The notes: generated from the letters alone by a model not told the origin. A stretch of DNA of 64,000 bases from an uncultured Holophagae bacterium (GCA_963710645.1 CAVQBD010000002.1:138828-202827); one strand, 5' to 3'. Numbered from the stretch's first letter, positions 4-60,406 are shown. A program made the numbers and translations.

Positions 4-4864
<4,861 letters not shown>

Positions 4865-4874
4865 TCGGTCACTG

Positions 4875-4916
4875 GTGAACGGTGAATAGTGAATAGTGAA
4901 TAGTGAATAGTGAATA
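4875..4916. repeat. Heptamer tandem array, GTGAATA x5 plus one degenerate unit
   Basis: Read directly from the DNA. It starts 11 nt after the TAG stop at 4862-4864. Confidence 0.95.
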
Positions 4917-4975
4917 GGGGGCAAGGGGGTAGGGGGCAGCCGAAAAAACGGTACAGGTCGCGGTGCGATGGAATC

Positions 4976-5089: not shown

Positions 5090-5142
5090 ATCTTGGATCT
5101 TGGATCTTGCATCTTGCATCTTGGATCTTAGATTTTGGATCT
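5090..5142. repeat. Heptamer tandem array, ATCTTGG/ATCTTGC, about 7.5 units
   Basis: Read directly from the DNA. It ends about 60 nt upstream of ATG 5202. Confidence 0.95.
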
Positions 5143-6653: not shown

Positions 6654-6690
6654 GGAATTAGAAATTAGAAATTAGAAATTAGAAATGTGA
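6654..6690. repeat. Heptamer tandem array, GAAATTA, about 5 units
   Basis: Located between convergent genes. A related degenerate array (CCCATTT CTATTTT CCCATTC TGCCTAT) at 6731-6760 abuts the stop of the minus-strand regulator. Confidence 0.9.
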
Positions 6691-8208: not shown

Positions 8209-8235
8209 TCGGTCGAAAGTCGAAAGTCGAAGGTT
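8209..8235. repeat. Heptamer tandem array, GTCGAAA, about 3.5 units
   Basis: It begins at the skp stop codon. The 11-mer AATAGTCGGTC, which contains the stop, is identical at 4860-4870 and 8204-8214. Confidence 0.9.
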
Positions 8236-8280: not shown

Positions 8281-8336
8281 CTGCCCGCTGCTCCCTGCCC
8301 CCTACTGCCTACTGCCTACTGCCTGCCGCCTGCCCG
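8281..8336. repeat. Heptamer tandem array, CTGCCCG/CTACTGC, 8 units
   Basis: CTGCCCG CTGCTCC CTGCCCC CTACTGC CTACTGC CTACTGC CTGCCGC CTGCCCG. Confidence 0.9.
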
Positions 8337-13906: not shown

Positions 13907-13988
13907 GAAAATTCGAAATTCGAAAACCCTCACCCTCCCGGTTGGGCGGGGGCCACTTCTCATTTCTCATTTCACATTTCTCATTTCC
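13907..13988. repeat. Heptamer arrays, AAATTCG x3 (13907-13927) and CATTTCT x5 (13954-13988), flanking a GGTTGGGCGGGGGCC motif
   Basis: The first array starts 3 nt after the TAG stop at 13902-13904. The second ends 7 nt before the sigma-54 -24 element. Confidence 0.9.
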
Positions 13989-21390: not shown

Positions 21391-22806
21391 ATGGCGTCTA
21401 CCAGCGAGACTCCGTTTGCCTATATCTTCGCCTCCGAGCTGCACGGGCGTCTGTTGTGGTTCGCGCGGCTGAGGTGGTTCGCGGTTGCGGTGCTGGCCGT
21501 CGCCTCGGTGGTCGGACCCCGATTCGGGTGGTCCGACGTCTGGCCAAGCCTCGCAATCATCGCGGGGCTCGTGGCAGTGTACAACCTGATCTTCACCAAG
21601 CGGCTCCGGAGTTATCTGCTGTGGGACAGGCCGTACCACGATCTACGAGCCGTAGCGATCGTGCAGATGCTGACCGACCTTGGTGCGCTGCTACTGGTGG
21701 TGCACTTCACAGGTGGCTGCCACAGCCCTGTGTTGCCGTTCGTGGTGTTCCACATGGCCATCGGCACGATCATGATCTCCACCCGGCTGATGTACGTGCT
21801 GGCGATGGTGACCATCATGGGCACGCTGGGATTGTTCGCCCTCGAGGGCTGGGTTCTGGAGCACCATCATCCCATCACGCCTCATACTGACGGCCTGGAG
21901 CTGTCATGCGTGCTCAACGCCGCGGTCATGGTGGTTCTGGTCTTCGGCATGGTCTACCTGACGGACACCGTGACCAGTCGTTTCAAGACCCGAGGCATCC
22001 AGCTCCACAAGACCAGCGAGCAGCTCAGATACCGGAAAGAAGAGCTCCAACAGTTGCTCCGCGAGCGTGAAGGCGTGGAGAGGCGCAAGTCTCACTACAT
22101 GCGGATCTCGGCCCACCAGTTGCGGTCGCCCCTCGGTACCATCAAGACTTCTCTGCAGGTCCTGGTGGACGGCATCGTCGATCCCGCCAGTGACGGTGGA
22201 CGGAGACTCATCGTGGGCGCCTCGGAGCGGGTGGATGATTTGCTGGAGATCGTCAACGACCTGCTGGAGCTGGCCAAGATGCGCGAGGGTCGGTTGCGGG
22301 CGCCCTGGGCTCGCCAGGTCTACATCAACCAGGTCCTGGCCGATATTTTTGACGCCATCGGACCGTTGGCCCAGGAGGGCCGGGTGGAGCTGGTGGCTGA
22401 TGTGGATGGTGTGGCGCTGCTCGACTGGGGGGTTCCGCCCGATCTGGTCTACGTCTTCGAGAACCTCATCGGTAACGCCATCAAGTACTCCCTCGAGGGT
22501 GGCGAGGTCCGGGTCAGATTGCGGGTCGAGGATGGCGTGGCGAAGGTCGAAGTGTCGGATCAGGGCATCGGTATTCCGGAAGAATTCTTGGACGATGTCT
22601 TCTTGGAGTTTGTTCGCGCGCCAAATGCCAAGAAACACGCGGCGGGCGGCACCGGTCTCGGCTTGTCCATTGTGCGCGAGGGTGTGGAGATGCACGGCGG
22701 CACCGTCGAGGTGGCAAGCGAGCCTGGCCGCGGCACCACCTTCACCGTCAAGCTCCCGTTGCATTTCGTTCCACCGGAGGTCGAGGATCGCGTCGATTCC
22801 GAATGA
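21391..22806 (+). CDS. Membrane sensor histidine kinase
   Basis: ATG 21391, inner start of ORF 21175..22806. Multi-TM N-terminus, H-box RISAHQLRSPLGT, N-box ENLIGNAIKYS and G-boxes DQGIGIP and GGTGLGLSIV. Confidence 0.85.
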   Translation: MASTSETPFAYIFASELHGRLLWFARLRWFAVAVLAVASVVGPRFGWSDVWPSLAIIAGLVAVYNLIFTKRLRSYLLWDRPYHDLRAVAIVQMLTDLGALLLVVHFTGGCHSPVLPFVVFHMAIGTIMISTRLMYVLAMVTIMGTLGLFALEGWVLEHHHPITPHTDGLELSCVLNAAVMVVLVFGMVYLTDTVTSRFKTRGIQLHKTSEQLRYRKEELQQLLREREGVERRKSHYMRISAHQLRSPLGTIKTSLQVLVDGIVDPASDGGRRLIVGASERVDDLLEIVNDLLELAKMREGRLRAPWARQVYINQVLADIFDAIGPLAQEGRVELVADVDGVALLDWGVPPDLVYVFENLIGNAIKYSLEGGEVRVRLRVEDGVAKVEVSDQGIGIPEEFLDDVFLEFVRAPNAKKHAAGGTGLGLSIVREGVEMHGGTVEVASEPGRGTTFTVKLPLHFVPPEVEDRVDSE

Positions 22807-23588: not shown

Positions 23589-23595
23589 GGTTCAA

Positions 23596-23782
23596 GTTGA
23601 AAGTCGAAAGTCGAAAGTCCCACCGGTCCAGGAGGCCAACAACTCGGGACTCGGGACTCGGGACTGAGGACTCGGGACTCGTCCCCCGCCCTCCCTCCCG
23701 GGACGACAACAGGGCGCGATGGGCGGGCGTACCACTCCGGGCACCTTCAAGTTGAAAGTTGAACGTTAAACGTTGAACGTTC
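23596..23782. repeat. Composite of heptamer arrays: GTYGAAA x3 (23596-23616), ACTCGGG x6 (23642-23683), AAMGTTG x5 (23748-23782)
   Basis: Each array is followed by CCC.CCCTCCCTCCC-GGACGACAACAGGGCGCG-ATGGGCGGGCGT. This makes a roughly 150-nt super-unit present twice in tandem (about 23590-23745 and 23746-23835). Confidence 0.85.
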
Positions 23783-23805
23783 CCACCCTCCCTCCCAGGA
23801 CGACA

Positions 23806-23966
23806 ACAGGGCGCGTATGGCGGGCGTGCCGTCTCTGACGATTTTGGGTTGAGGTCGAACAGTCTGCGTGTCGCGACGAGTCCCGAACAGTGTCAGGGGT
23901 GGCAACCTCGGGGAGCGCGGTTGGGAGATGGGCGCGTCGAAGCCGGTGAATCGAACCGTACGCCCG
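23806..23966 (+). repeat. Dispersed roughly 160-nt repeat, copy B
   Basis: See copy A at 11336-11497. The ORF-track translations of both loci share ...CQGW.PRGARLGDGR...ESNRT.... Confidence 0.8.
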
Positions 23967-24471: not shown

Positions 24472-24529
24472 ATCGACTATCTCAATATTCCAGAAGAGAA
24501 TTCGGTATGATGGGCGAGGAGTGCTACTG

Positions 24530-25465
24530 ATGACTATTATTACTTATATGATCGCTTACTGTGGCATCGCAATCTTCCTGGTGGCCTGCGTGGCCCGGTT
24601 CAAGATGTGGTCGAAGATGCCCATGCACCTTCGCTGGGAACTCTACCCGGTGGCCCATGAGGGTGGCGGCAGAGCCGCGTACGGCGGTTCCTACCTCGAG
24701 GAAAGTGATTGGTGGACCAAGCCTCGCAACGTCTCGCTCGTGGGCGAGGCCAAGGTGATGGTGCCTGAAATCCTCTTTCTCGAGGCTCTCAAGGAGCACA
24801 ACAACCAGCTCTGGAAGCGCTCATTCCCGTTCCATTTCGGGCTCTACCTGGTGGCAGCGTGCACCATCCTGATGATGATCAACGGCATTCTGAGCGCCCT
24901 GCTGCCGGGGCTCATGGGTGGAATCATCGGGACGCTCTTCTCCTGGATGATCCCGATCACCGGCTACGCCGGGTTGATCATGGGATTGGTGGGTGCGGTG
25001 GGTCTGATCCAGCGGCGATTCGTCAAACCGCTGCGCGACTACTCGGCGCCCGTCGACGTGCTCAACCTCGTGTTCTTCGTGGTGGCCTTTGGTACGGCCC
25101 TGGTGACAGCACTTTGGGTCGACCACGGCTTCGAGCGGGTCACCGCGTTTGTCGGAAATCTGGTGACATTCCACGTCGCCCCGCTCCCGGGAACAGGGCC
25201 GGAGGTCCTGATGCCCATGATCTCGGCCATCCTGCTCGCTCTTCTGGTGGCCTACATTCCACTCACACACATGTCCCACTTCGTGGGCAAGTATTTCGCA
25301 TATCATTCCATCCGCTGGGCAGATGAACCCAATCTCCGCGGCGGAAAGCAAGAGAAGGTCATTCACGAGTTGTTGGACCAGCCCGTGTCATGGTCGGCCC
25401 CCCATATTCAGGGTGACGGCAAGAAGACGTGGTTGGATGTCGCGACGGAGGATCAGAAGAAATGA
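24530..25465 (+). CDS. dsrM: DsrM-like membrane b-type cytochrome (NarI/HdrE family)
   Basis: ATG 24530 lies 8 nt after a GAGGAG RBS. It is a polytopic membrane protein with the NarI-like N-terminus ...RFKMWSKMPMHLRWELYP. An ATGA overlap couples it translationally to the DsrK-like gene. Confidence 0.75.
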   Translation: MTIITYMIAYCGIAIFLVACVARFKMWSKMPMHLRWELYPVAHEGGGRAAYGGSYLEESDWWTKPRNVSLVGEAKVMVPEILFLEALKEHNNQLWKRSFPFHFGLYLVAACTILMMINGILSALLPGLMGGIIGTLFSWMIPITGYAGLIMGLVGAVGLIQRRFVKPLRDYSAPVDVLNLVFFVVAFGTALVTALWVDHGFERVTAFVGNLVTFHVAPLPGTGPEVLMPMISAILLALLVAYIPLTHMSHFVGKYFAYHSIRWADEPNLRGGKQEKVIHELLDQPVSWSAPHIQGDGKKTWLDVATEDQKK

Positions 25466-27066
25466 AGCAACCTGACAGCGTCAAGGATATTTCGAAGCAT
25501 CCGGGTCAGCCGCTGGCCCAGGTCAAGCCCATGGACCTGGTGCCGCTGCCACCCCCATTCGACAAGCTGGACGAGGAACCGGAGTTCGCTCAGTTGTCGG
25601 AAAAAGCTCGGCAGCAGTACGTTGTGCTTGACGACACCATCGCGGTGAACATCAAGAACCCCGAGACCAAGGAGGAGGAGGATCGCCTCGTCCAGAGCTT
25701 CTTGACCGGCATGAAGAAGTTGTTCACGAAGGAGGACAACTGGACGTTCCTACAGCCGCTCGAGATGTCCATGGAGCATTGCGCCAAGTGCATGACCTGC
25801 TCCGAGGCCTGCCACATCTTCGAGGAGTCGAATGAGAACGAGCTCTATCGGCCCACCTACCGGTCGGAGATCATTCGGCGGATCTACTTCAAGTACATCA
25901 AGAAGGCTTCACCCCTGATCCACGGCGACATCGATCTCAATTGGACCACCGTGGGCCGTCTCATCGAATTGAGCTATCGCTGCAATCTCTGCCGGCGCTG
26001 CGCCCAGACCTGCCCGATCGGTGTGGACAACGCGTTGTTGTCACGGGAGATCCGTAAGATCGCGTCCCAGGAGATGGGAATCGTTCCGAAGGAACTCCAC
26101 GACAATGGATCAGTACTGCAGCTCGAGGTTGGGTCTTCCACAGGGATGACCCCGATGATCGTCAAGGACAACATCGAGTTCATCGACGAGGACACGGCCG
26201 AGCGTACCGGCATCGTGTACGAGACCCCATGGGATGTTGAGGGAGCCGACATTCTGCTCATCCACAACGCGGGAGAAATCATGGCGTGGCCGGAGAACCC
26301 GGGCGCCTTTGGCACCATCTTTGATGCCGCCGGTCTGAGCTGGACCATGTCGTCGGAGATCGTGGCCTATGACGGCATCAATTACGGGGTTTGGTACGAC
26401 GACATGATGTTTGCCAAGGTGGCCGTCAAGCATGCTCAGGCGGCGGCCAAGCTCGGCGTCAAGAAGATCGTGCTCGGCGAGTGTGGCCACGCGCACAAGG
26501 CGCTTACCGTGATCGCCGACAGGGTGCTCACTGGAGACCTCAACATTCCCCGCGAAAGTTCCATGGTGACCCTGCTGGATATCGTCCGGTCGGGGAAGGT
26601 CAAGTTCGACAAGAGCCGGAACGACTTCCCGGTGACCCTTCACGATCCCTGCAATCTCGTTCGACTGATGGGTGTTGTCTCGCCGCAGCGGGAGATCATC
26701 GAGGCGGTGGTGCCCGAGGGCCGGTTCCGGGAGATGGCGCCGCACGGAGTCGAGAACTACTGCTGCGGAGGCGGATCGGGCTTTGCCATCATGTCCGGTC
26801 ACAATTTCGCCGATTGGCGTCACTACATGACCGGTCGCAGGAAGTTTCGCCAGATCCTCGACGCCTTCCAGGGCGAGGAAATGGACATGGACCATCCCAA
26901 GTATCTCTGCGCCCCGTGTTCCAACTGCAAGGGCCAGATCCGCGACATCATCACCTACTACGACGCATGGGAGAAAGCCGGTATCTACTACGGTGGCCTG
27001 GTGGAGTTGATGGTCAACGCCATGGTGGATGCCCAGCCGGGCTTCATCGATTGGGAGTGGCACTAG
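25462..27066 (+). CDS. dsrK: DsrK-like Fe-S/CCG heterodisulfide-reductase-type subunit (HdrD family)
   Basis: Ferredoxin motifs CAKCMTCSEACH and CNLCRRCAQTCP. CCG-type motifs GECGHAHK, HDPCNLVR, YCCGGGSGF and CAPCSNCKGQ. Confidence 0.8.
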   Translation: MKQPDSVKDISKHPGQPLAQVKPMDLVPLPPPFDKLDEEPEFAQLSEKARQQYVVLDDTIAVNIKNPETKEEEDRLVQSFLTGMKKLFTKEDNWTFLQPLEMSMEHCAKCMTCSEACHIFEESNENELYRPTYRSEIIRRIYFKYIKKASPLIHGDIDLNWTTVGRLIELSYRCNLCRRCAQTCPIGVDNALLSREIRKIASQEMGIVPKELHDNGSVLQLEVGSSTGMTPMIVKDNIEFIDEDTAERTGIVYETPWDVEGADILLIHNAGEIMAWPENPGAFGTIFDAAGLSWTMSSEIVAYDGINYGVWYDDMMFAKVAVKHAQAAAKLGVKKIVLGECGHAHKALTVIADRVLTGDLNIPRESSMVTLLDIVRSGKVKFDKSRNDFPVTLHDPCNLVRLMGVVSPQREIIEAVVPEGRFREMAPHGVENYCCGGGSGFAIMSGHNFADWRHYMTGRRKFRQILDAFQGEEMDMDHPKYLCAPCSNCKGQIRDIITYYDAWEKAGIYYGGLVELMVNAMVDAQPGFIDWEWH

Positions 27067-27070
27067 GTCA

Positions 27071-27126
27071 GTGACTCGTGAATAGTAAATAGTGAATAGT
27101 GAATAGTGAATAGTGAGTCGAGAATA
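27071..27126. repeat. Heptamer tandem array, GTGAATA family, 8 units
   Basis: It starts 5 nt after the dsrK TAG stop and belongs to the same unit family as 4875-4916, 22 kb away. Confidence 0.95.
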
Positions 27127-27154
27127 GTCGGAAGCTGACAGCATCAAATGATCA

Positions 27155-27236
27155 GAGACCGCCCACCCGCGTGGGCGGTTTTTTCAATGGCCCCGCCCTG
27201 GCCGATCCAAGAACGAAGAACGAAGAACGAAGATCC
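27155..27236 (+). repeat. 75-82-nt direct repeat, copy 1 (terminator hairpin, CAATGGCCCCGCCCTGGCCGATCC, then AAGAACG array)
   Basis: Apart from the AAGAACG unit count, I saw no difference from 27501-27575. This copy has three full AAGAACG units; copy 2 has two. Confidence 0.9.
27159..27184 (+). terminator. Rho-independent terminator downstream of dsrK (copy 1)
   Basis: CCGCCCAC-ccgc-GTGGGCGG gives an 8-bp GC stem with a 4-nt loop, followed by TTTTTT. Confidence 0.8.
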
Positions 27237-27263
27237 CCCCCACCCGCCCGGGTGGGGGTTTTT
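27237..27263 (+). terminator. Second hairpin and T-run terminator
   Basis: CCCCCACCC-gccc-GGGTGGGGG followed by TTTTT. Confidence 0.65.
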
Positions 27264-27500
27264 GTCGTCCCGTCCAGAGTGGGGGAGTGATCGGAACGAG
27301 ACCGCAACCCCGTTCCCGCTCCCGTTCCCGTTCCCGGGCACGGGGGCAGGCAGTACGGAGTGCAGTAGGGAGCAGGGGGCGGTCCACCTCTGAGCCCGTT
27401 GTCGTTACCGTTACCGAATACTCGGACCGGGGTGTCTGGGGGCCGTGAGCCGTGAGCTGTGCGCAGGCAGTCGGCAGGAACCCATAGAACCCAATCGATC

Positions 27501-27575
27501 GAGACCGCCCACCCGCGTGGGCGGTTTTTTCAATGGCCCCGCCCTGGCCGATCCAAGAACGAAGAACGAAGATCC
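27501..27575 (+). repeat. 75-82-nt direct repeat, copy 2
   Basis: See copy 1 at 27155-27236. Confidence 0.9.
27505..27530 (+). terminator. Rho-independent terminator (copy 2; identical hairpin to 27159-27184)
   Basis: Same CCGCCCACCCGCGTGGGCGG hairpin and T6, inside the second copy of a 75-82-nt direct repeat. Confidence 0.7.
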
Positions 27576-27813
27576 CCCATCCGCTCGAGGAGCGCGTTCG
27601 GAGAAAGTCGTTCTTCGGAGGTGCCTGGACTCCTGACGTTGTGGAGCAGCCGTCTCGGCTGCAATTCTTGCCCCAATTGAATGCATAAATGCGGGCCGGA
27701 GGATTGCTCCACAGTGACTCTCCGGTCTTGTACGTGTCTCGTATCTGCGCGGGCGGGTGGGCGGGGGTCTCATAGCTTATAGCGCAGGGCTTATAGCCTG
27801 AACGGCCGGGTGG

Positions 27814-27848
27814 GCCCGAACCCGGAACCCGGAACCCGGAACCAACGA
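27814..27848. repeat. Heptamer tandem array, CCCGGAA x5
   Basis: GCCCGAA CCCGGAA CCCGGAA CCCGGAA CCAACGA. Confidence 0.9.
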
Positions 27849-28017
27849 GGATGGCCCGCGGCCAGCGGTTCATGGCTTGCGACCGGAGCAAACTGCGATC
27901 CCCGACGGTCGTCTTCCATTGCAACTTGCGACGGTGCCGCTCGTGGATTGCCGGGAAGTCAGCCCGAAATATTGATTTTAAGAGACTTGTGCATAATTTC
28001 ACGAAATCTAGGAAAAT

Positions 28018-28033
28018 GGCACGCCGGTTGCTG
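28018..28033 (+). promoter_or_regulatory. Sigma-54 (-24/-12) promoter candidate for the beta-propeller and hmc-like operon
   Basis: TGGCACGCCGGTTGCT matches the consensus at every conserved position (GG 28019-28020, GC 28031-28032). It lies about 60 nt upstream of ATG 28092, with an AT-rich tract just upstream. Confidence 0.7.
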
Positions 28034-28091: not shown

Positions 28092-29354
28092 ATGGTTGAC
28101 CTGGAGGGCTGGAATTGGGAGGAGGGACGGAGGGCCGTCGCCGACGTTTCCCGACTGCGGGAGCAGTTTGCAGATGTCCATGAGTTTGCGGTCAGCGGCG
28201 ACGGAGAGGTCATCGCCGCGCCGGTGGTCGACGAGTCGGGTGGCTTTGGTGTCTGGGTCAACGGCGCACTCTGGGAGGGAGAGTTCGAGAAAGCGTGGCA
28301 TCTCGTTTTCACTCCGGATCAGCGGTTGACGGCGTTGGTCCGCGTCGACGATGAGTGGACTCTGGCGGTGGACGGAGAGCTCTGGGATCAACGCTGGGAA
28401 TTTGCCTGGAACCCGACCTTCAGCCGCGATGGTCGGGTGATTGCGTTGCAGATCAAGGACAACATGGAGTACTCGGTTGCCGTCAACGGAACGCCGTGGG
28501 ACTGCCGCTTTCCCTCGAGCCGCGGTCTGGCGGTGAGCGACGACGGCAACACCGTGGCCGCGCTGGTTCAGGTGGTTCCGTTGGCAGAGGCGGACATCGT
28601 CGGCTTCATGGATGGAACCTGGTCCATCGCGGTCAACGGCGAGCCGTGGCAACAGAAATTCATCAACGTCTACGGCCTCGCGATCAGCGAAGACGGCTCG
28701 GGCGTTGCCGCCGAGGTCCGGCTTGACATCTGCAAGTACACGCTGGCTGAGAACTCACGGCCCTGGGAGAGCCGCTTCGGGTGCGTGTGGGAGCCCGCCT
28801 ATCGAAACGGCAGCCGGAATCTCCTGGCGCCGGTGCGGGTCGAGGGCTCGTGGACAATCGCGGAGAACGGGAGCCCCATCTGGTCGAGTCGCTTCATGCA
28901 GCTGTGGAACCTGCGGCTGAGTCAGGACGGAAGGCGGCTCGCCGCGGTGGCCGCGGGGGCTTTTGGCTCGTGGACGGTGGTGGTCGACGATCGGCCGTGG
29001 CCGGTCTCGTTCAACGATTTGATCCTGCCGCCGGTCTTCTCGCCAGACGGCCGAAGGGTCGCCGCAGGAGTCCGCCATGACGGCGTGTGGAGCGTGGCCG
29101 TCGACGGTACCCGCTGGCAGGAGACCTACGACATGGTCTGGGATCCGGTCTTTGCGCCCGACGGTGCGCGGGTGGTGGCGAAGGTGGAGCGCGACAGGAA
29201 GTTTGCCGTCGCGGTCGACGGCGAGGTCCGCGGCCCGTGGTTCGAGGCGATGTGGGAACCGGTGGTGAGCCCCGATGGGCAGCGGCTGCTGGTACGGGCC
29301 GTCGAGGACGGTGTCTACACCCGCCGGGTCGTTTCGTTCGACGGTCTCGGCTGA
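28092..29354 (+). CDS. Cytoplasmic repeat protein, about 10 PD40/WG-like beta-propeller blades
   Basis: ATG 28092 follows a GAAAGGGAG RBS; no signal peptide. The roughly 40-aa unit FSPDGrrvAa.v..dg.WsvAVdG..W...fd.vWdPv recurs about 10 times (for example FSRDGRVIALQ, VSDDGNTVAAL, FSPDGRRVAAG, FAPDGARVVAK, VSPDGQRLLVR). Confidence 0.7.
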   Translation: MVDLEGWNWEEGRRAVADVSRLREQFADVHEFAVSGDGEVIAAPVVDESGGFGVWVNGALWEGEFEKAWHLVFTPDQRLTALVRVDDEWTLAVDGELWDQRWEFAWNPTFSRDGRVIALQIKDNMEYSVAVNGTPWDCRFPSSRGLAVSDDGNTVAALVQVVPLAEADIVGFMDGTWSIAVNGEPWQQKFINVYGLAISEDGSGVAAEVRLDICKYTLAENSRPWESRFGCVWEPAYRNGSRNLLAPVRVEGSWTIAENGSPIWSSRFMQLWNLRLSQDGRRLAAVAAGAFGSWTVVVDDRPWPVSFNDLILPPVFSPDGRRVAAGVRHDGVWSVAVDGTRWQETYDMVWDPVFAPDGARVVAKVERDRKFAVAVDGEVRGPWFEAMWEPVVSPDGQRLLVRAVEDGVYTRRVVSFDGLG

Positions 29355-29369: not shown

Positions 29370-30017
29370 ATGTTCGACTTCATCAGCGGTCCGCTCGTTT
29401 GGATCGCCTTCGCCGGCCTCTTTGGAGGGCTCGCCTACCGGCTGGTCACGATGGCTGCACTGGCGCGGCGGGAGCGGGTGGTCTACCCGACGCTGGACGC
29501 CAAGTACGGCACCCGCTCACTGCTCCATTGGCTGATCCCCTTCGCGGGAAGAAAGACTCGTCTGCACCCTGCCTACACCTTGGTGTCATACGCCTTTCAC
29601 GTCTGTCTGCTGGTGACGCCGTTGTTTGCCGCCGGGCACGTCCTGCTCTTCAAGCGGTCATGGGGATTCGGCTGGTGGACCCTGCCCGACGCGGTCGGCG
29701 ACGGGATGACCCTCGTGGTGGTCTTCGCCTGCCTGTTTTTTATGATCCGGCGCCTGCTGCAGCCTGAGGTTCGCAACGTCAGCGACGCCTCAGACTTCCT
29801 CCTCGCGGGCGTGGTCCTGGTTCCATTCGCGACGGGGTTCCTCGCCCACCGGCAGTGGCTCTCCTACGAACCGATGCTCATCATCCACGGTCTTTCCGGC
29901 GTGCTGGCCCTGTTGCTGATCCCGTGGACGCGTCTGGTGCACCTGCTGTGGTTCACCTTCACCCGCGCTTTCATGGGCTCCGAGTTCGGGGCCGTCCGTC
30001 ACGCGAGGGATTGGTAA
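29370..30017 (+). CDS. hmcE: HmcE-like membrane b-type cytochrome (NarI/HdrE/DsrM family)
   Basis: 215 aa and polytopic, with His residues inside TM helices (AFHVCLL...AAGHVLL...IIHGLSG...LVHLLW). It sits directly upstream of an HdrD-like subunit. RBS GAGGAGGG. Confidence 0.65.
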   Translation: MFDFISGPLVWIAFAGLFGGLAYRLVTMAALARRERVVYPTLDAKYGTRSLLHWLIPFAGRKTRLHPAYTLVSYAFHVCLLVTPLFAAGHVLLFKRSWGFGWWTLPDAVGDGMTLVVVFACLFFMIRRLLQPEVRNVSDASDFLLAGVVLVPFATGFLAHRQWLSYEPMLIIHGLSGVLALLLIPWTRLVHLLWFTFTRAFMGSEFGAVRHARDW

Positions 30018-30059: not shown

Positions 30060-31379
30060 ATGGCTGATCTGCAGGACATCCAGGTCATGGATCCCGGCGT
30101 TGACGACAATATCGCCAAACTGACGCCGGAGCGTATCGAGACCACTATCAACAGGGTGCTGACCGACGAGTGCGGCGCGCGGCTGCGGGTCTATCTCGAC
30201 ACGTGTGTCCACTGCGGCCTGTGTGCCGAGGCGTGCCAGAGCTACGTCTCCCGCAACGGCGACCCGGACTACGCGCCGGTGGCCAAGGTCAAGGACACGT
30301 TGTGGGAAATGGTCAAGCGCAAGGGTCGCGTGGACGGCGAATTCCTCCACAACGCGGCCCGAATCGCCTTCATTGACTGCGGGGCGTGCCGCCGCTGCAG
30401 CATGTACTGCCCATTTGGGATCGACATCGCCTATCTGATCATGACCGTGCGTCGGATCCTCAACCTGCTCGGGGTGGTTCCCCAGTACCTTCAAGACACC
30501 ACCAACAGCCACGCCGCCACCATGAACCAGATGTGGGTCCAGCAGGATGACTGGATCGACACCCTGATGTGGCAGGAGGAGGACGCCCAGGAGGAGCTGG
30601 CGGGCACCAGGATCCCGCTCGACAAGGAGGGCGCCGACATCATGTACTCGGTGATCGGTCCCGAACCCAAGATCCTCGCCCAGCTGATCGCCAACATGGC
30701 GATCATCTTCAAGGTGGCCGGCGCCGACTGGACCATGCCGTCCACCGACGGCTGGGACAACTCGAACATGGCCATGTACTCGGGCGACTTCGAAACCATG
30801 GGACGGGTCGAGCGGCTGCACTGGGAACGTGCCATGCAGCTCAAGGTCAAACGGGTGGTGATGGGCGAGTGCGGCCACGCCTACCGCGGGGCGGTTTACG
30901 ACGGACCGAGGTGGCTTGGTTGGACCAAGCCACCCATTCCCATGGTGCACGCCGTCGAGTACTACTACGAGATCATCAAGAGCGGTCGGCTGAAGATCGC
31001 CCGAAAGATCGAAGAGCCGGTCACGGTGCAGGATCCCTGCAACATCGTCCGCGGCCGCGGGCTTCACGACAAACTGAGGTACGTCGTCAACGCGATCTGC
31101 GAGGACTTCCGGGACATGGATCCCCGTTACGAGCACAACTACTGCTGTCAGGCCGGAGGAGGGCTGATCAATTGCGGCCCACCGTGGAAGGTGTCTCGGA
31201 TGAAGAGCAACAAGATCAAGGCGGAACAGATCGTCGGCACCGGGGCCCACACGGTCATCACCCCGTGCCACAACTGCCACAGCGGCATCGAAGACATCAT
31301 CGGTTACTACAAGCTCGGCGCCCATGTGTCGTTCATCAGCGAGCTCCTGGTCAAGACCATCGAGCTTCCGGAAGCCTGA
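30060..31379 (+). CDS. hmcF: HmcF-like Fe-S/CCG protein (HdrD/DsrK family)
   Basis: Motifs CVHCGLCAEACQ, CGACRRCSMYCP, GECGHAYRG, QDPCNIVR, YCCQAGGG and TPCHNCHSG. Confidence 0.7.
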   Translation: MADLQDIQVMDPGVDDNIAKLTPERIETTINRVLTDECGARLRVYLDTCVHCGLCAEACQSYVSRNGDPDYAPVAKVKDTLWEMVKRKGRVDGEFLHNAARIAFIDCGACRRCSMYCPFGIDIAYLIMTVRRILNLLGVVPQYLQDTTNSHAATMNQMWVQQDDWIDTLMWQEEDAQEELAGTRIPLDKEGADIMYSVIGPEPKILAQLIANMAIIFKVAGADWTMPSTDGWDNSNMAMYSGDFETMGRVERLHWERAMQLKVKRVVMGECGHAYRGAVYDGPRWLGWTKPPIPMVHAVEYYYEIIKSGRLKIARKIEEPVTVQDPCNIVRGRGLHDKLRYVVNAICEDFRDMDPRYEHNYCCQAGGGLINCGPPWKVSRMKSNKIKAEQIVGTGAHTVITPCHNCHSGIEDIIGYYKLGAHVSFISELLVKTIELPEA

Positions 31380-31382
31380 GGG

Positions 31383-32903
31383 GTGGTGGGAATGTCCGCA
31401 CGCAATTGGTATCTGGCGGTTTGGTGTGTTGTGCTGTTGCTCGCGGCCACGGTTGGGGTCTCGGCCGGGGAGGTCGGGGCTTTGCGGGCCATCGGCCCGT
31501 CGATCATCGTCATGGACAACATTGGCGCCTTCGACGTCATGGAGCGGCCATCGGTGGAGTTCGACCATGCGGCACACGCCGATGCGATGAAGTCTGAGGG
31601 CTGCACGGCGTGCCATCGGGTCGAGAACGAACGGCTGATGCCCAAACTGTCCGGGATTCCCAACGTCGGCGACCGAGATGAGTTGCTCGACGGCTTTCAT
31701 GGGAGGTGTATCGGTTGCCACTCCGAGCGCGCCGATGCGGCCCAGTCCAGCGGTCCGGTGACCTGCGGCGAGTGCCACGTCCGTCGGCCGGACGGTGTCT
31801 CGACTCGGGCGGCCATGTCCTTCGATTACTCGCTCCACGCACGCCACGCGCAGGCCTACCCCGAGCGGTGCGAGGAATGCCATCACGTCTACGACGAGCA
31901 GCAGCAGAAGTTGGTTTACGTCAAGGGCGAAGAAGATGCGTGTCGCTCGTGTCACGGAGAGTCGGACGTGAATGATACGCCCTCGCTCGAAAATGCCTCC
32001 CACCGAGGCTGCATCTCGTGCCACCTGAATCGGCAGGCGGCCGAGCTCGAGGCCGGCCCGGTGCGGTGCGTCGGGTGCCATGATCTCGATCACCAGCTTG
32101 CGATCAAGACCCTCGACGCGGCCGAGATTCCCCGCCTGCTGCGAGGCCAGCCGGACAGCGTCTGGATCGTCGACGACGAGGCTCGGACCAGGGTCGTGGC
32201 CTTTGATCACAAGGGACACGAGTCGGTCACCACCTCGTGCTCCACCTGCCATCACCAGACGATGAAGCCCTGTGGTGAGTGCCACACGTTGGTTGGCTCA
32301 ACGGAGGGTGGTGGGGTCACCATGGCGGTGGCTTATCACCTCGATGGCTCCGAACACAGCTGTGTGGGGTGCCATACGCTCGAAACTCGCGAGCAGGAGT
32401 GCTCCGGCTGCCACGCCCAGCCCTCGGTGGCACCGGCCGAAAGTACTTGCACGGTGTGTCATGCGGGTCCGGTCGCTGGACCCGAGGTGGCCGAGATGCC
32501 GGTGCCGGTTGCTCAACAATCGGAAATGGCGGCTCTTCCCCAGATCTCGGAATCCTACCCGGAGACGGTGGAGATCGCCGTGCTGGTGGACCGATACCAG
32601 TCCTCCAAGCTGCCCCACGCCAAGATTGTGGCCCGGCTCGACGCAGCGGTACGGGCCAGCGATCTGGCCGGTCGATTCCACCAGAATGTGGAGACCTTGT
32701 GCGCGGGCTGTCACCACCACAGTCCGGCGGGGATCCGGCCGCCGCCGTGTCGCGCGTGCCACGCCGAGGCTGCCGCCACCCGGGACATGCCCGGACTCAA
32801 GGTTGCCTACCACCGGCAGTGCATGGGCTGCCATGCCGAGATGGGGATCAAGGCTCAGAGCTGTACGGATTGCCACGCAGAGAGGGAGGGCGAAGAGTCA
32901 TGA
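31383..32903 (+). CDS. hmcA: Periplasmic 16-heme cytochrome c (HmcA-like)
   Basis: Signal peptide, and 16 CXXCH motifs counted in the translation: CTACH, CIGCH, CGECH, CEECH, CRSCH, CISCH, CVGCH, CSTCH, CGECH, CVGCH, CSGCH, CTVCH, CAGCH, CRACH, CMGCH, CTDCH. Confidence 0.85.
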   Translation: MVGMSARNWYLAVWCVVLLLAATVGVSAGEVGALRAIGPSIIVMDNIGAFDVMERPSVEFDHAAHADAMKSEGCTACHRVENERLMPKLSGIPNVGDRDELLDGFHGRCIGCHSERADAAQSSGPVTCGECHVRRPDGVSTRAAMSFDYSLHARHAQAYPERCEECHHVYDEQQQKLVYVKGEEDACRSCHGESDVNDTPSLENASHRGCISCHLNRQAAELEAGPVRCVGCHDLDHQLAIKTLDAAEIPRLLRGQPDSVWIVDDEARTRVVAFDHKGHESVTTSCSTCHHQTMKPCGECHTLVGSTEGGGVTMAVAYHLDGSEHSCVGCHTLETREQECSGCHAQPSVAPAESTCTVCHAGPVAGPEVAEMPVPVAQQSEMAALPQISESYPETVEIAVLVDRYQSSKLPHAKIVARLDAAVRASDLAGRFHQNVETLCAGCHHHSPAGIRPPPCRACHAEAAATRDMPGLKVAYHRQCMGCHAEMGIKAQSCTDCHAEREGEES

Positions 32904-60390: not shown

Positions 60391-60406
60391 TGGCACAGCG
60401 GTTGCA
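60391..60406 (+). promoter_or_regulatory. Sigma-54 (-24/-12) promoter candidate for yeiH-like and dsrAB
   Basis: TGGCACAGCGGTTGCA (GG 60392-60393, GC 60404-60405). It lies about 47 nt upstream of ATG 60453. Confidence 0.7.

Follow-up and report, generated by a model that had tools for sequence, protein, structure and literature searches.

The window analyzed here is a 64-kb stretch of DNA from an uncultured Thermoanaerobaculia acidobacterium. It contains a two-gene sulfur-metabolism operon that ends in a dsrK/hmeD-like gene, followed by a 1025-nt spacer and a sigma-54-driven tmcDCBA operon. Near the locus lie histidine kinase, DedA, dsrMK-like and tmcDCBA genes (based on Pfam hits for the tmcD neighbors). 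The relatives of the dsrK-like protein come from Acidobacteriota MAGs that are labelled either Thermoanaerobaculia or 'Holophagae' and lie near Candidatus Sulfomarinibacteraceae, and a 100% identical 534-aa record of this protein is available (P0138). The genes, all on the + strand, are as follows, with coordinates counted along the window.

24521-25465, + strand: membrane subunit gene, overlapping the dsrK-like gene through an ATGA start/stop (read from the sequence)
25462-27066, + strand: dsrK/hmeD-like Fe-S oxidoreductase gene, 534 aa, with Pfam Fer4_8 and CCG domains
28092-29354, + strand: tmcD, the first gene of tmcDCBA, with homologues named 'electron transfer complex subunit TmcD' in their sources
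29370-30017, + strand: tmcC
30060-31379, + strand: tmcB
31383-32903, + strand: tmcA, multiheme

The overlap of the first two genes indicates, at the level of sequence, that they are translationally coupled. The sigma-54 pattern search returned two matches in the window, compared with 0.05 expected. One lies 60 nt upstream of tmcD and is kept in four related loci (L003, L001, L081 and L090), and the second is at 60391-60406. A near-palindrome, TGTGC-N6-TCACG (27988-28003), is conserved just upstream of the tmcD element and may be a regulator site.

Both copies of a small module lie inside the spacer between dsrK and tmcD, and the module carries the terminator of the dsrK-like operon. The features of the spacer are listed below.

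27070-27128, + strand: (AGTGAAT) x8.4 array (TRF), beginning 4 nt past the dsrK-like stop codon
27155-27239, + strand: module copy 1, 85 nt, AAGAACG x3, read through to the AAGATCCCCC tail
27158-27166 and 27171-27179, + strand: stem of hairpin A1 (copy 1), with loop CCGC and a T-run to 27184
27185-27208, + strand: copy 1 linker, 24 nt
27209-27229, + strand: copy 1 heptamers, (AAGAACG)x3, with the AAGATCCCCC tail at 27230-27239
27237-27263, + strand: terminator T2, CCCCCACCC-GCCC-GGGTGGGGG followed by TTTTT (terminator scan), directly 3' of copy 1
27264-27500, + strand: segment X, which separates the copies and is a patchwork of short, decayed arrays (TRF)
27501-27578, + strand: module copy 2, 78 nt, AAGAACG x2, read through to the AAGATCCCCC tail
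27504-27525, + strand: hairpin A2 (copy 2)
27531-27554, + strand: copy 2 linker, 24 nt
27555-27568, + strand: copy 2 heptamers, (AAGAACG)x2, with the AAGATCCCCC tail at 27569-27578
27579-27841, + strand: spacer segment Y1, unique to the window, beginning GCTCGAGGAGC
28017-28032, + strand: sigma-54-type -24/-12 promoter element TGGCACgccggTTGCT

An earlier note on this DNA had described a module duplicated 346 nt apart, with heptamer number as the only difference between its copies, and both points are borne out. A repeat search combined with reading of the sequence gives an exact direct repeat of 72 nt (27155-27226 and 27501-27572) at an offset of 346 nt, and the 64-kb window matches the 54-nt core at just these two sites when up to 3 mismatches are allowed, compared with none expected from 100 shuffles. 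The sole difference between copy 1 and copy 2 is one 7-nt AAGAACG unit, and TRF reports the two arrays as x3.6 and x2.6, each with a 100% match, such that the units are perfect and head to tail. The starts given in the earlier note stand, while its ends (27236 and 27575) fall 3 nt short of those reached when the tail is read through (27239 and 27578). To the left of the module the copies share 8 nt of weak similarity (AATGATCA compared with AATCGATC), and past these 8 nt the flanks are no more alike than shuffled sequence (p ~0.1 on each side). An older, longer duplication that has since decayed was considered and rejected, as local alignments of the 80-nt left and right flanks score no higher than shuffles or other spacers. 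The 346-nt unit, composed of hairpin A, the linker, the AAGAACG array, T2 and X, is present 1.23 times in the window.

Hairpin A (ACCGCCCAC-CCGC-GTGGGCGGT followed by six T) has a 9-bp stem and a 4-nt loop on the sense strand, and the predicted fold of the module is -29 kcal/mol. As modelled, it is a canonical intrinsic (Rho-independent) terminator with predicted activity. T2 has a predicted fold of -21 kcal/mol and is kept in L003, and hairpins A and T2 are both inverted repeats of the 11-nt motif CCGCCCACCCG. A1 and T2 would act as tandem terminators of the upstream operon, and A2, located before the sigma-54 promoter of tmcDCBA, would be a third and redundant terminator, if their predicted activity holds. 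The duplication itself is probably neutral.

The origin of the module has been probed by comparison with orthologous spacers. BLAST of the spacer against 80 related loci gave a single match, L003, at the orthologous position, and 11 further loci added only L090, a JGI contig, again at the orthologous position. The dsrK-like gene of L003 is 89.0% identical to that of the window, and the gene of L090 is 88.6% identical to the window and 92.5% identical to L003. The window layout reads AGTGAAT array-A-linker-heptamers-T2-X-A-linker-heptamers-Z. The L090 spacer reads stop-TTTTTC-(GTAAGCC)x4-spacer-AGACCGCCCACCCGCATGGGCGGTTTTTTT and is without the linker, the AAGAACG array, T2 and the 5' part of X; its array and spacer match X at the 3' end when aligned (GCCGTGA array ... 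AGGAACCCATAGA ...), such that the 3' part of X (~27442-27500) is orthologous to the post-stop spacer of L090. The L003 spacer reads stop-AGCCGCCA-linker'-(AAGAACG)x2-T2-X-A, followed at once by GTCTCGAG..., where linker' is identical to the window linker at 13/17 positions (76%). The layout of L003 is consequently that of one unit in a permuted phase, in which the module is split and its halves lie at either end. Arrays within X include CCCGTT x4.7, a GCAGTAGG-type array, GTTACC x2 and GCCGTGA x2.9, and X as a whole is identical to L003 at 232/236 aligned positions.

Each of the orthologues, L003 and L090, has one terminator A. A2 together with its left flank is the orthologue of this single hairpin, and the motif GTCT(C/T)GAG.AGC follows the terminator in L090 and L003 and follows copy 2 in the window. 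Likewise, the GCTCGAGGAGC sequence at the start of Y1 is the orthologue of the post-terminator sequence in L003 and L090. A1 starts 90 nt past the dsrK-like stop codon and the counterpart hairpin in L090 starts 87 nt past it; the L090 hairpin differs from A by one stem base and the L003 hairpin is identical to A. The same distance from the same stop codon in L090 argues that hairpin A was inherited and not inserted. As read from these three spacers, it is an old, vertically inherited terminator of the dsrMK-like operon, and its second copy is specific to the window lineage. Just before its linker, L003 also carries AGCCGCCACCCG, which resembles the 5' arm of hairpin A and is possibly the remnant of a first hairpin. 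L081 has a hairpin (CACCGCCACGCCGCGTGGCGGTG) similar to A and a CAATGGTCCC stretch similar to the linker, arranged the other way round; this likeness was judged too weak to use.

Other parts of the spacer vary among relatives. The AGTGAAT array is absent from L003 and L090, and its 'stop + array' has a stretch of 88% similarity at 4864-4913 in the window. Y1 has no BLAST match in any of the 91 related loci compared. Its features are a long hairpin with imperfect pairing (27637-27715), a G tract of four runs (GGGCGGGTGGGCGGGGG, 27750-27768), a direct repeat of GCTTATAGC and an array of GAACCCG (x3.7). In L001 (7770-8470) and L083 (2931-3632), the dsrK-tmcD spacer holds a MIP/aquaporin gene on the opposite strand, and such a gene likewise lies in this spacer in L084, L085 and L089. 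Its presence in several relatives suggests that the dsrK-tmcD spacer is a hot spot of DNA gain and loss. The spacers of TmcD relatives at 68-71% identity (L081-L087) are short or contain the aquaporin gene, and are without the module.

The comparison with L003 reveals an anomaly in one part of the spacer.

27209-27531, + strand: block E (heptamers of copy 1, T2, X and A2), 98.4% identical to L003 (307/312 aligned positions)

Within the 13.7 kb compared between the window and L003, no other 300-nt stretch is as conserved as block E. Third-codon identity between the two is 76.6% in the dsrK-like gene and 53-77% in the tmc genes, the tmcD promoter region (Y2) is 74% identical, and Fisher tests of block E against third-codon positions, the linker and the promoter region give p values from 5e-4 to 1e-21. 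The AGTGAAT ('G') array and Y1 of the window have no counterpart in L003. The 36 nt to the left of A show 0/36 differences from L003 and 8/36 from L090 at equal coding divergence, which argues that the identity reflects recent ancestry and not constraint. Among the differences from L003 within E, indels are as frequent as substitutions, and they include a 21-nt indel of three heptamers and 1-nt changes in homopolymer runs, several of which may be Nanopore errors. Differences that are this sparse and often of the indel type fit a very recent common ancestry. On these comparisons, block E was exchanged recently between the window and L003 lineages and is not under selection.

Functional explanations for the conservation of block E were also considered. 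A conserved ncRNA was rejected, as the homologous flank in L090 shows divergence at a neutral level. No Rfam match to E was found at gathering scores or at E<=10, the fold z-score of E is ~-2 on both strands with the terminator dominating, and no sigma-70-like promoter was found inside E. A coding role was rejected because every frame is broken by 1-nt indels relative to L003, and the minus-strand frame that stays open across E gave no match when searched as protein. Elsewhere in the comparison, coding patches at 30494-30918 and 21669-22143 are 96-97% identical to L003 (~90% at third-codon positions), and mean identity over the 13.7 kb is 85% with a mosaic pattern. This suggests that recombination or gene flow between the window and L003 lineages is repeated and not rare.

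It is proposed, with a probability of roughly 0.68, that a 346-nt unit occurs 1.23 times, that the two copies are where its ends overlap, and that they arose from recent local recombination and not from insertions of a mobile cassette. The repeat comprises exactly A, the linker and the heptamers, which are both ends of the exchanged block plus the gap that was not exchanged (the linker), and both copies have this gap in the window's own form. A repeat made up of block ends and a non-exchanged gap is the footprint expected of an ends-in single crossover or of a local unequal exchange. Two features of an insertion-type product are observed: identical direct repeats (A, linker and heptamers) flank an insert (T2 and X), and foreign insert and arms contrast with a native gap and native outer flanks (98.4% identity to L003 for E, compared with 76% for the linker and 74% for Y2).

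In the most economical route, the donor would be DNA of an L003-like relative carrying heptamers-T2-X-A, and the recipient would be a native locus with the layout stop-array-A-linker-heptamers-Z. The sole shared stretches would be the heptamer array and hairpin A, which stand in opposite order in donor and recipient, and this opposite order implies an exchange of the insertion (ends-in, Campbell-like) type. Gap repair would then copy the recipient's linker, and resolution would insert T2-X and leave the homology segment, including the recipient linker, as flanking direct repeats. Alternatively, the same structure would arise within one chromosome if two pre-existing A hairpins took part in an unequal exchange or a template switch, although this route needs an additional, separate gene-flow event to account for the identity pattern. 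Subsequently, one copy would have gained or lost one AAGAACG unit by slipped-strand mispairing. This scheme spans three lineages (window, L003 and L090), in which neither the order of events nor the roles of donor and recipient can be polarized, and a pre-insertion allele of the form stop-array-A-linker-heptamers-Z was not found among the readable spacers of the relatives. A second cassette in the window, at 23589-23830, combines an AAGTYGA-type array with a GC-rich palindrome (CCCACCCTCCCTCCCGGGACGACAACAGGGCGCG..GGCGGGCG). It is present in two copies in the window (88% identical) and three in L003 (3950-4290), a difference that supports the same kind of local copy-number change in another spacer.

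The product resembles the repeats left by Campbell-type or unequal exchange in several respects. Identical homology copies in the same orientation flank the insert, the boundaries are sharp with no target-site duplication or terminal inverted repeat, the period of 346 nt is the sum of the insert and one repeat, and the insert is closer to the other lineage than its flanks are. Unlike the usual Campbell-type cases, the homology arms are very short (~24-31 nt) and the event is reconstructed from three genomes.

Direct repeats a few hundred nucleotides apart are known to undergo conversion, which lends some weight to an alternative in which the tandem duplication is old and was already present in the ancestor of the window and L003. 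Its copies would have been kept identical by gene conversion or by selection, the latter if repeated terminators or insulators were favored, with deletions in L003 and L090. This account is unlikely. Its attraction is that the differences among the window, L003 and L090 require deletions only, and that AGCCGCCACCCG before the L003 linker resembles the 5' arm of A; however, CCGCCCACCCG occurs often in these spacers, and the apparent remnant may be due to chance. Moreover, an old duplication leaves unexplained why E is 98.4% identical to L003 when the linker within the repeat is 76% identical, it needs independent and precise losses in both L003 and L090, and no decayed homology extends past the edges of the repeat.

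An extension of the recombination model is that the 346-nt unit, or E, is a small piece of DNA that moves horizontally among related Thermoanaerobaculia by homologous single crossover, which we consider a long shot. If true, the entry points would be conserved terminator hairpins and heptamer arrays, and the spacers of this clade would be built and exchanged as cassettes, a transposase-free analogue, based on recombination, of the spread of REP/BIME elements.

The earlier note had also proposed that the hairpin and array were copied as a unit in a MITE- or REP-like manner. Its first half stands, in that hairpin, linker and array are duplicated together; the manner does not, as no terminal inverted repeats or target-site duplications are present. 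Several observations would be expected of a small non-autonomous element (MITE, REP/BIME or IS200/IS605-PATE-like) copied by a transposase: the module contains a perfect palindromic hairpin, the CCGCCCACCCG motif is enriched 3.5-fold and in many spacers adjoins heptamer arrays, hairpins lie close to both ends of block E, and E is common to two species at 98.4% identity, as for a horizontally moving element. An element of this type would also be expected in many further copies across the genome. The ends of the module, GAGACCGCCC (5') and AAGATCCCCC (3'), are nevertheless not terminal inverted repeats, and the internal hairpin is the sole palindrome. No target-site duplication is present at either copy (copy 1 flanks ..TGATCA-module-CCACCC.. 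and copy 2 flanks ..TCGATC-module-ATCCGC..). The note held that a core confined to this locus would count against its reading, and so far the core has been found in this spacer only: there are two copies in one spacer of the 64-kb window, further copies of any part of the spacer are likewise absent from the window, and the 91 related loci are without copies beyond the orthologous site. The search for a dispersed palindrome gave a similar result, as the hairpin sequence occurs just twice in the window and only the 11-nt half-motif is enriched. Exact-match scans found neither the 24-nt linker in GTDB species representatives or JGI metagenome contigs nor the 28-nt hairpin in JGI metagenomes or IMG/VR, and blastn against PLSDB gave no match; the GTDB, JGI and IMG/VR scans cover exact sub-strings only, and copies within the genome were looked for in the 64-kb window. 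In addition, the linker belongs to the duplicated module and yet lies outside the recently shared block (76% compared with 98.4%), such that what was copied differs in extent from the 'young' unit, and hairpin A, being equally placed after the same stop codon in L090, is inherited. Taken as a whole, copying by a transposase is highly improbable.

Comparison with known elements is instructive in this regard. Like MITEs, the module is small, non-coding, structured and intergenic; unlike MITEs, no terminal inverted repeats, target-site duplication or dispersed family was found for it in the 64-kb window searched. Like the REP/BIME elements of Enterobacteria and Pseudomonas, the module offers GC-rich palindromes in a spacer just past a stop codon; REP/BIME elements are sometimes clustered with strain-variable copy number, and some are terminators or mRNA stabilizers. 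REPs, however, have tens to hundreds of dispersed, RAYT-linked copies, compared with two copies at one locus in the 64-kb window here. Hairpin A, unlike REPs, has a U-tract, by which it is recognizable as an intrinsic terminator of the ordinary kind.

The weakest alternative, to which we give very little credence, is that the assembly is at fault and one true module was doubled by a graph loop or by reads of a co-occurring L003-like strain threaded through the shared heptamer array and hairpin. The shared stretches (~24-31 nt) are far below long-read overlap lengths, the source contig is 660,187 nt long and its nearest relatives were sequenced deeply by Nanopore, such that the 424-nt structure should fit within single reads. 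The relatives in question derive from Microflora Danica samples (PMC12313526). An artefact would account for E being as close to L003 as a conspecific strain would be (98.4%) and for the 100% identity of the two copies, and a chimeric path from recipient to L003-like sequence and back to recipient would give exactly this structure. An independent assembly bears on this point. A Logan short-read contig (ERR12037370), in which TmcD and TmcC are encoded exactly as in the window, has its start at window position 27543, which is 549 nt ahead of tmcD. A second contig matched through TmcD and TmcC, of 1359 nt, stops short of the spacer. The repeated 31-mers start at 27501-27542 and 27543 is the first 31-mer unique to copy 2, such that a k=31 graph breaks exactly at the repeat edge. 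This break requires the window's own linker, and not the L003 linker, to be followed by both two and three units, which counts against an artefact, although heptamer heterogeneity at a single copy could also yield that branch. The contig of a further relative, L091, ends (6605) at the dsrK-like stop codon, much as the Logan contig starts at the repeat edge. Short-read assemblies probably break at the arrays and repeats of these spacers, and such features are likely under-represented in public data.

The duplication is an ordinary kind of event in a little-known organism and is of limited importance alone. It offers a clean natural case in which very short homologies, here a terminator hairpin and a 7-nt array, duplicate a terminator and import foreign spacer DNA, and in which heptamer arrays slip by whole units within the time-scale of a single duplication. 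It also provides a caution for annotators, as a 'hairpin + repeat' module found twice is not evidence for a family of mobile elements. The heptamer-packed spacers of this clade, with arrays that often follow stop codons and have species-specific units, form the more interesting background and may deserve a genome-wide study.

The claim of the earlier note that the arrays expand and contract between fixed flanks is supported by further comparisons. There are 3 AAGAACG units in copy 1, 2 in copy 2 and 2 in the L003 orthologue, with flanks unchanged, and an AGGGAGC array differs between the window and L003 by a 21-nt indel, or three units. Additionally, the window and L003 differ in an ACTCGGG array (5.7 and 2.3 units, respectively). 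It is already known that heptamer SSRs are in excess in the intergenic DNA of bacteria (PMC4679880, PMC4692102, PMC2700814). Known examples include the cyanobacterial STRR arrays, TAACTGA in Beggiatoaceae (PMC4679880), GGGAATC in Xanthomonas and Nostoc (PMC4692102), and heptanucleotide elements in Geobacter metallireducens (PMC2700814). Like these, the arrays described here are short, perfect 7-nt arrays that are almost wholly intergenic, their unit number varies among close relatives, and a few units recur at many loci. Unlike these, they belong to the phylum Acidobacteriota (Thermoanaerobaculia) and have other units, and many lie 4-23 nt past stop codons and not upstream of starts. The nearest relatives, L001 and L003, have an array density like that of the window, and most others do not.

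The window has 24 period-7 arrays, including those at 4882-4917, 6656-6686, 8212-8231, 13909-13925, 23594-23619 and 27070-27128; 21/24 fall in the ~11% of the DNA that is non-coding, and six of the arrays start 4-23 nt past a stop codon. The heptamer that follows the same dsrK-like stop codon differs among relatives: GTCTAAA x7 in L001, TTCGGAA x8 in L005, ATTTCGG in L013, GGAATTA in L020 and GTAAGCC x4 in L090. The (GGCCC)CCGCCCACCCG motif has 18 matches in the window at up to 1 mismatch, compared with 5.1 expected (3.5-fold), with starts that include 60, 8389, 13939, 24121, 24184, 27159, 27236, 27505, 27754, 57733 and 57802. The CCGCCCACCCG matches are mostly in spacers and directly adjoin heptamer arrays; on the sense strand the motif is C-rich downstream of genes and G-rich upstream of them. 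Finally, some units recur at unrelated loci, including GTGAATA at 4882 and 27070 (where the sequence before the array is included in the 88% similarity), AAGTCGA at 8212 and 23594, ATCTTGR at 5090 and 24135, and CAGTAGG at 8301, 27350 and 59450.
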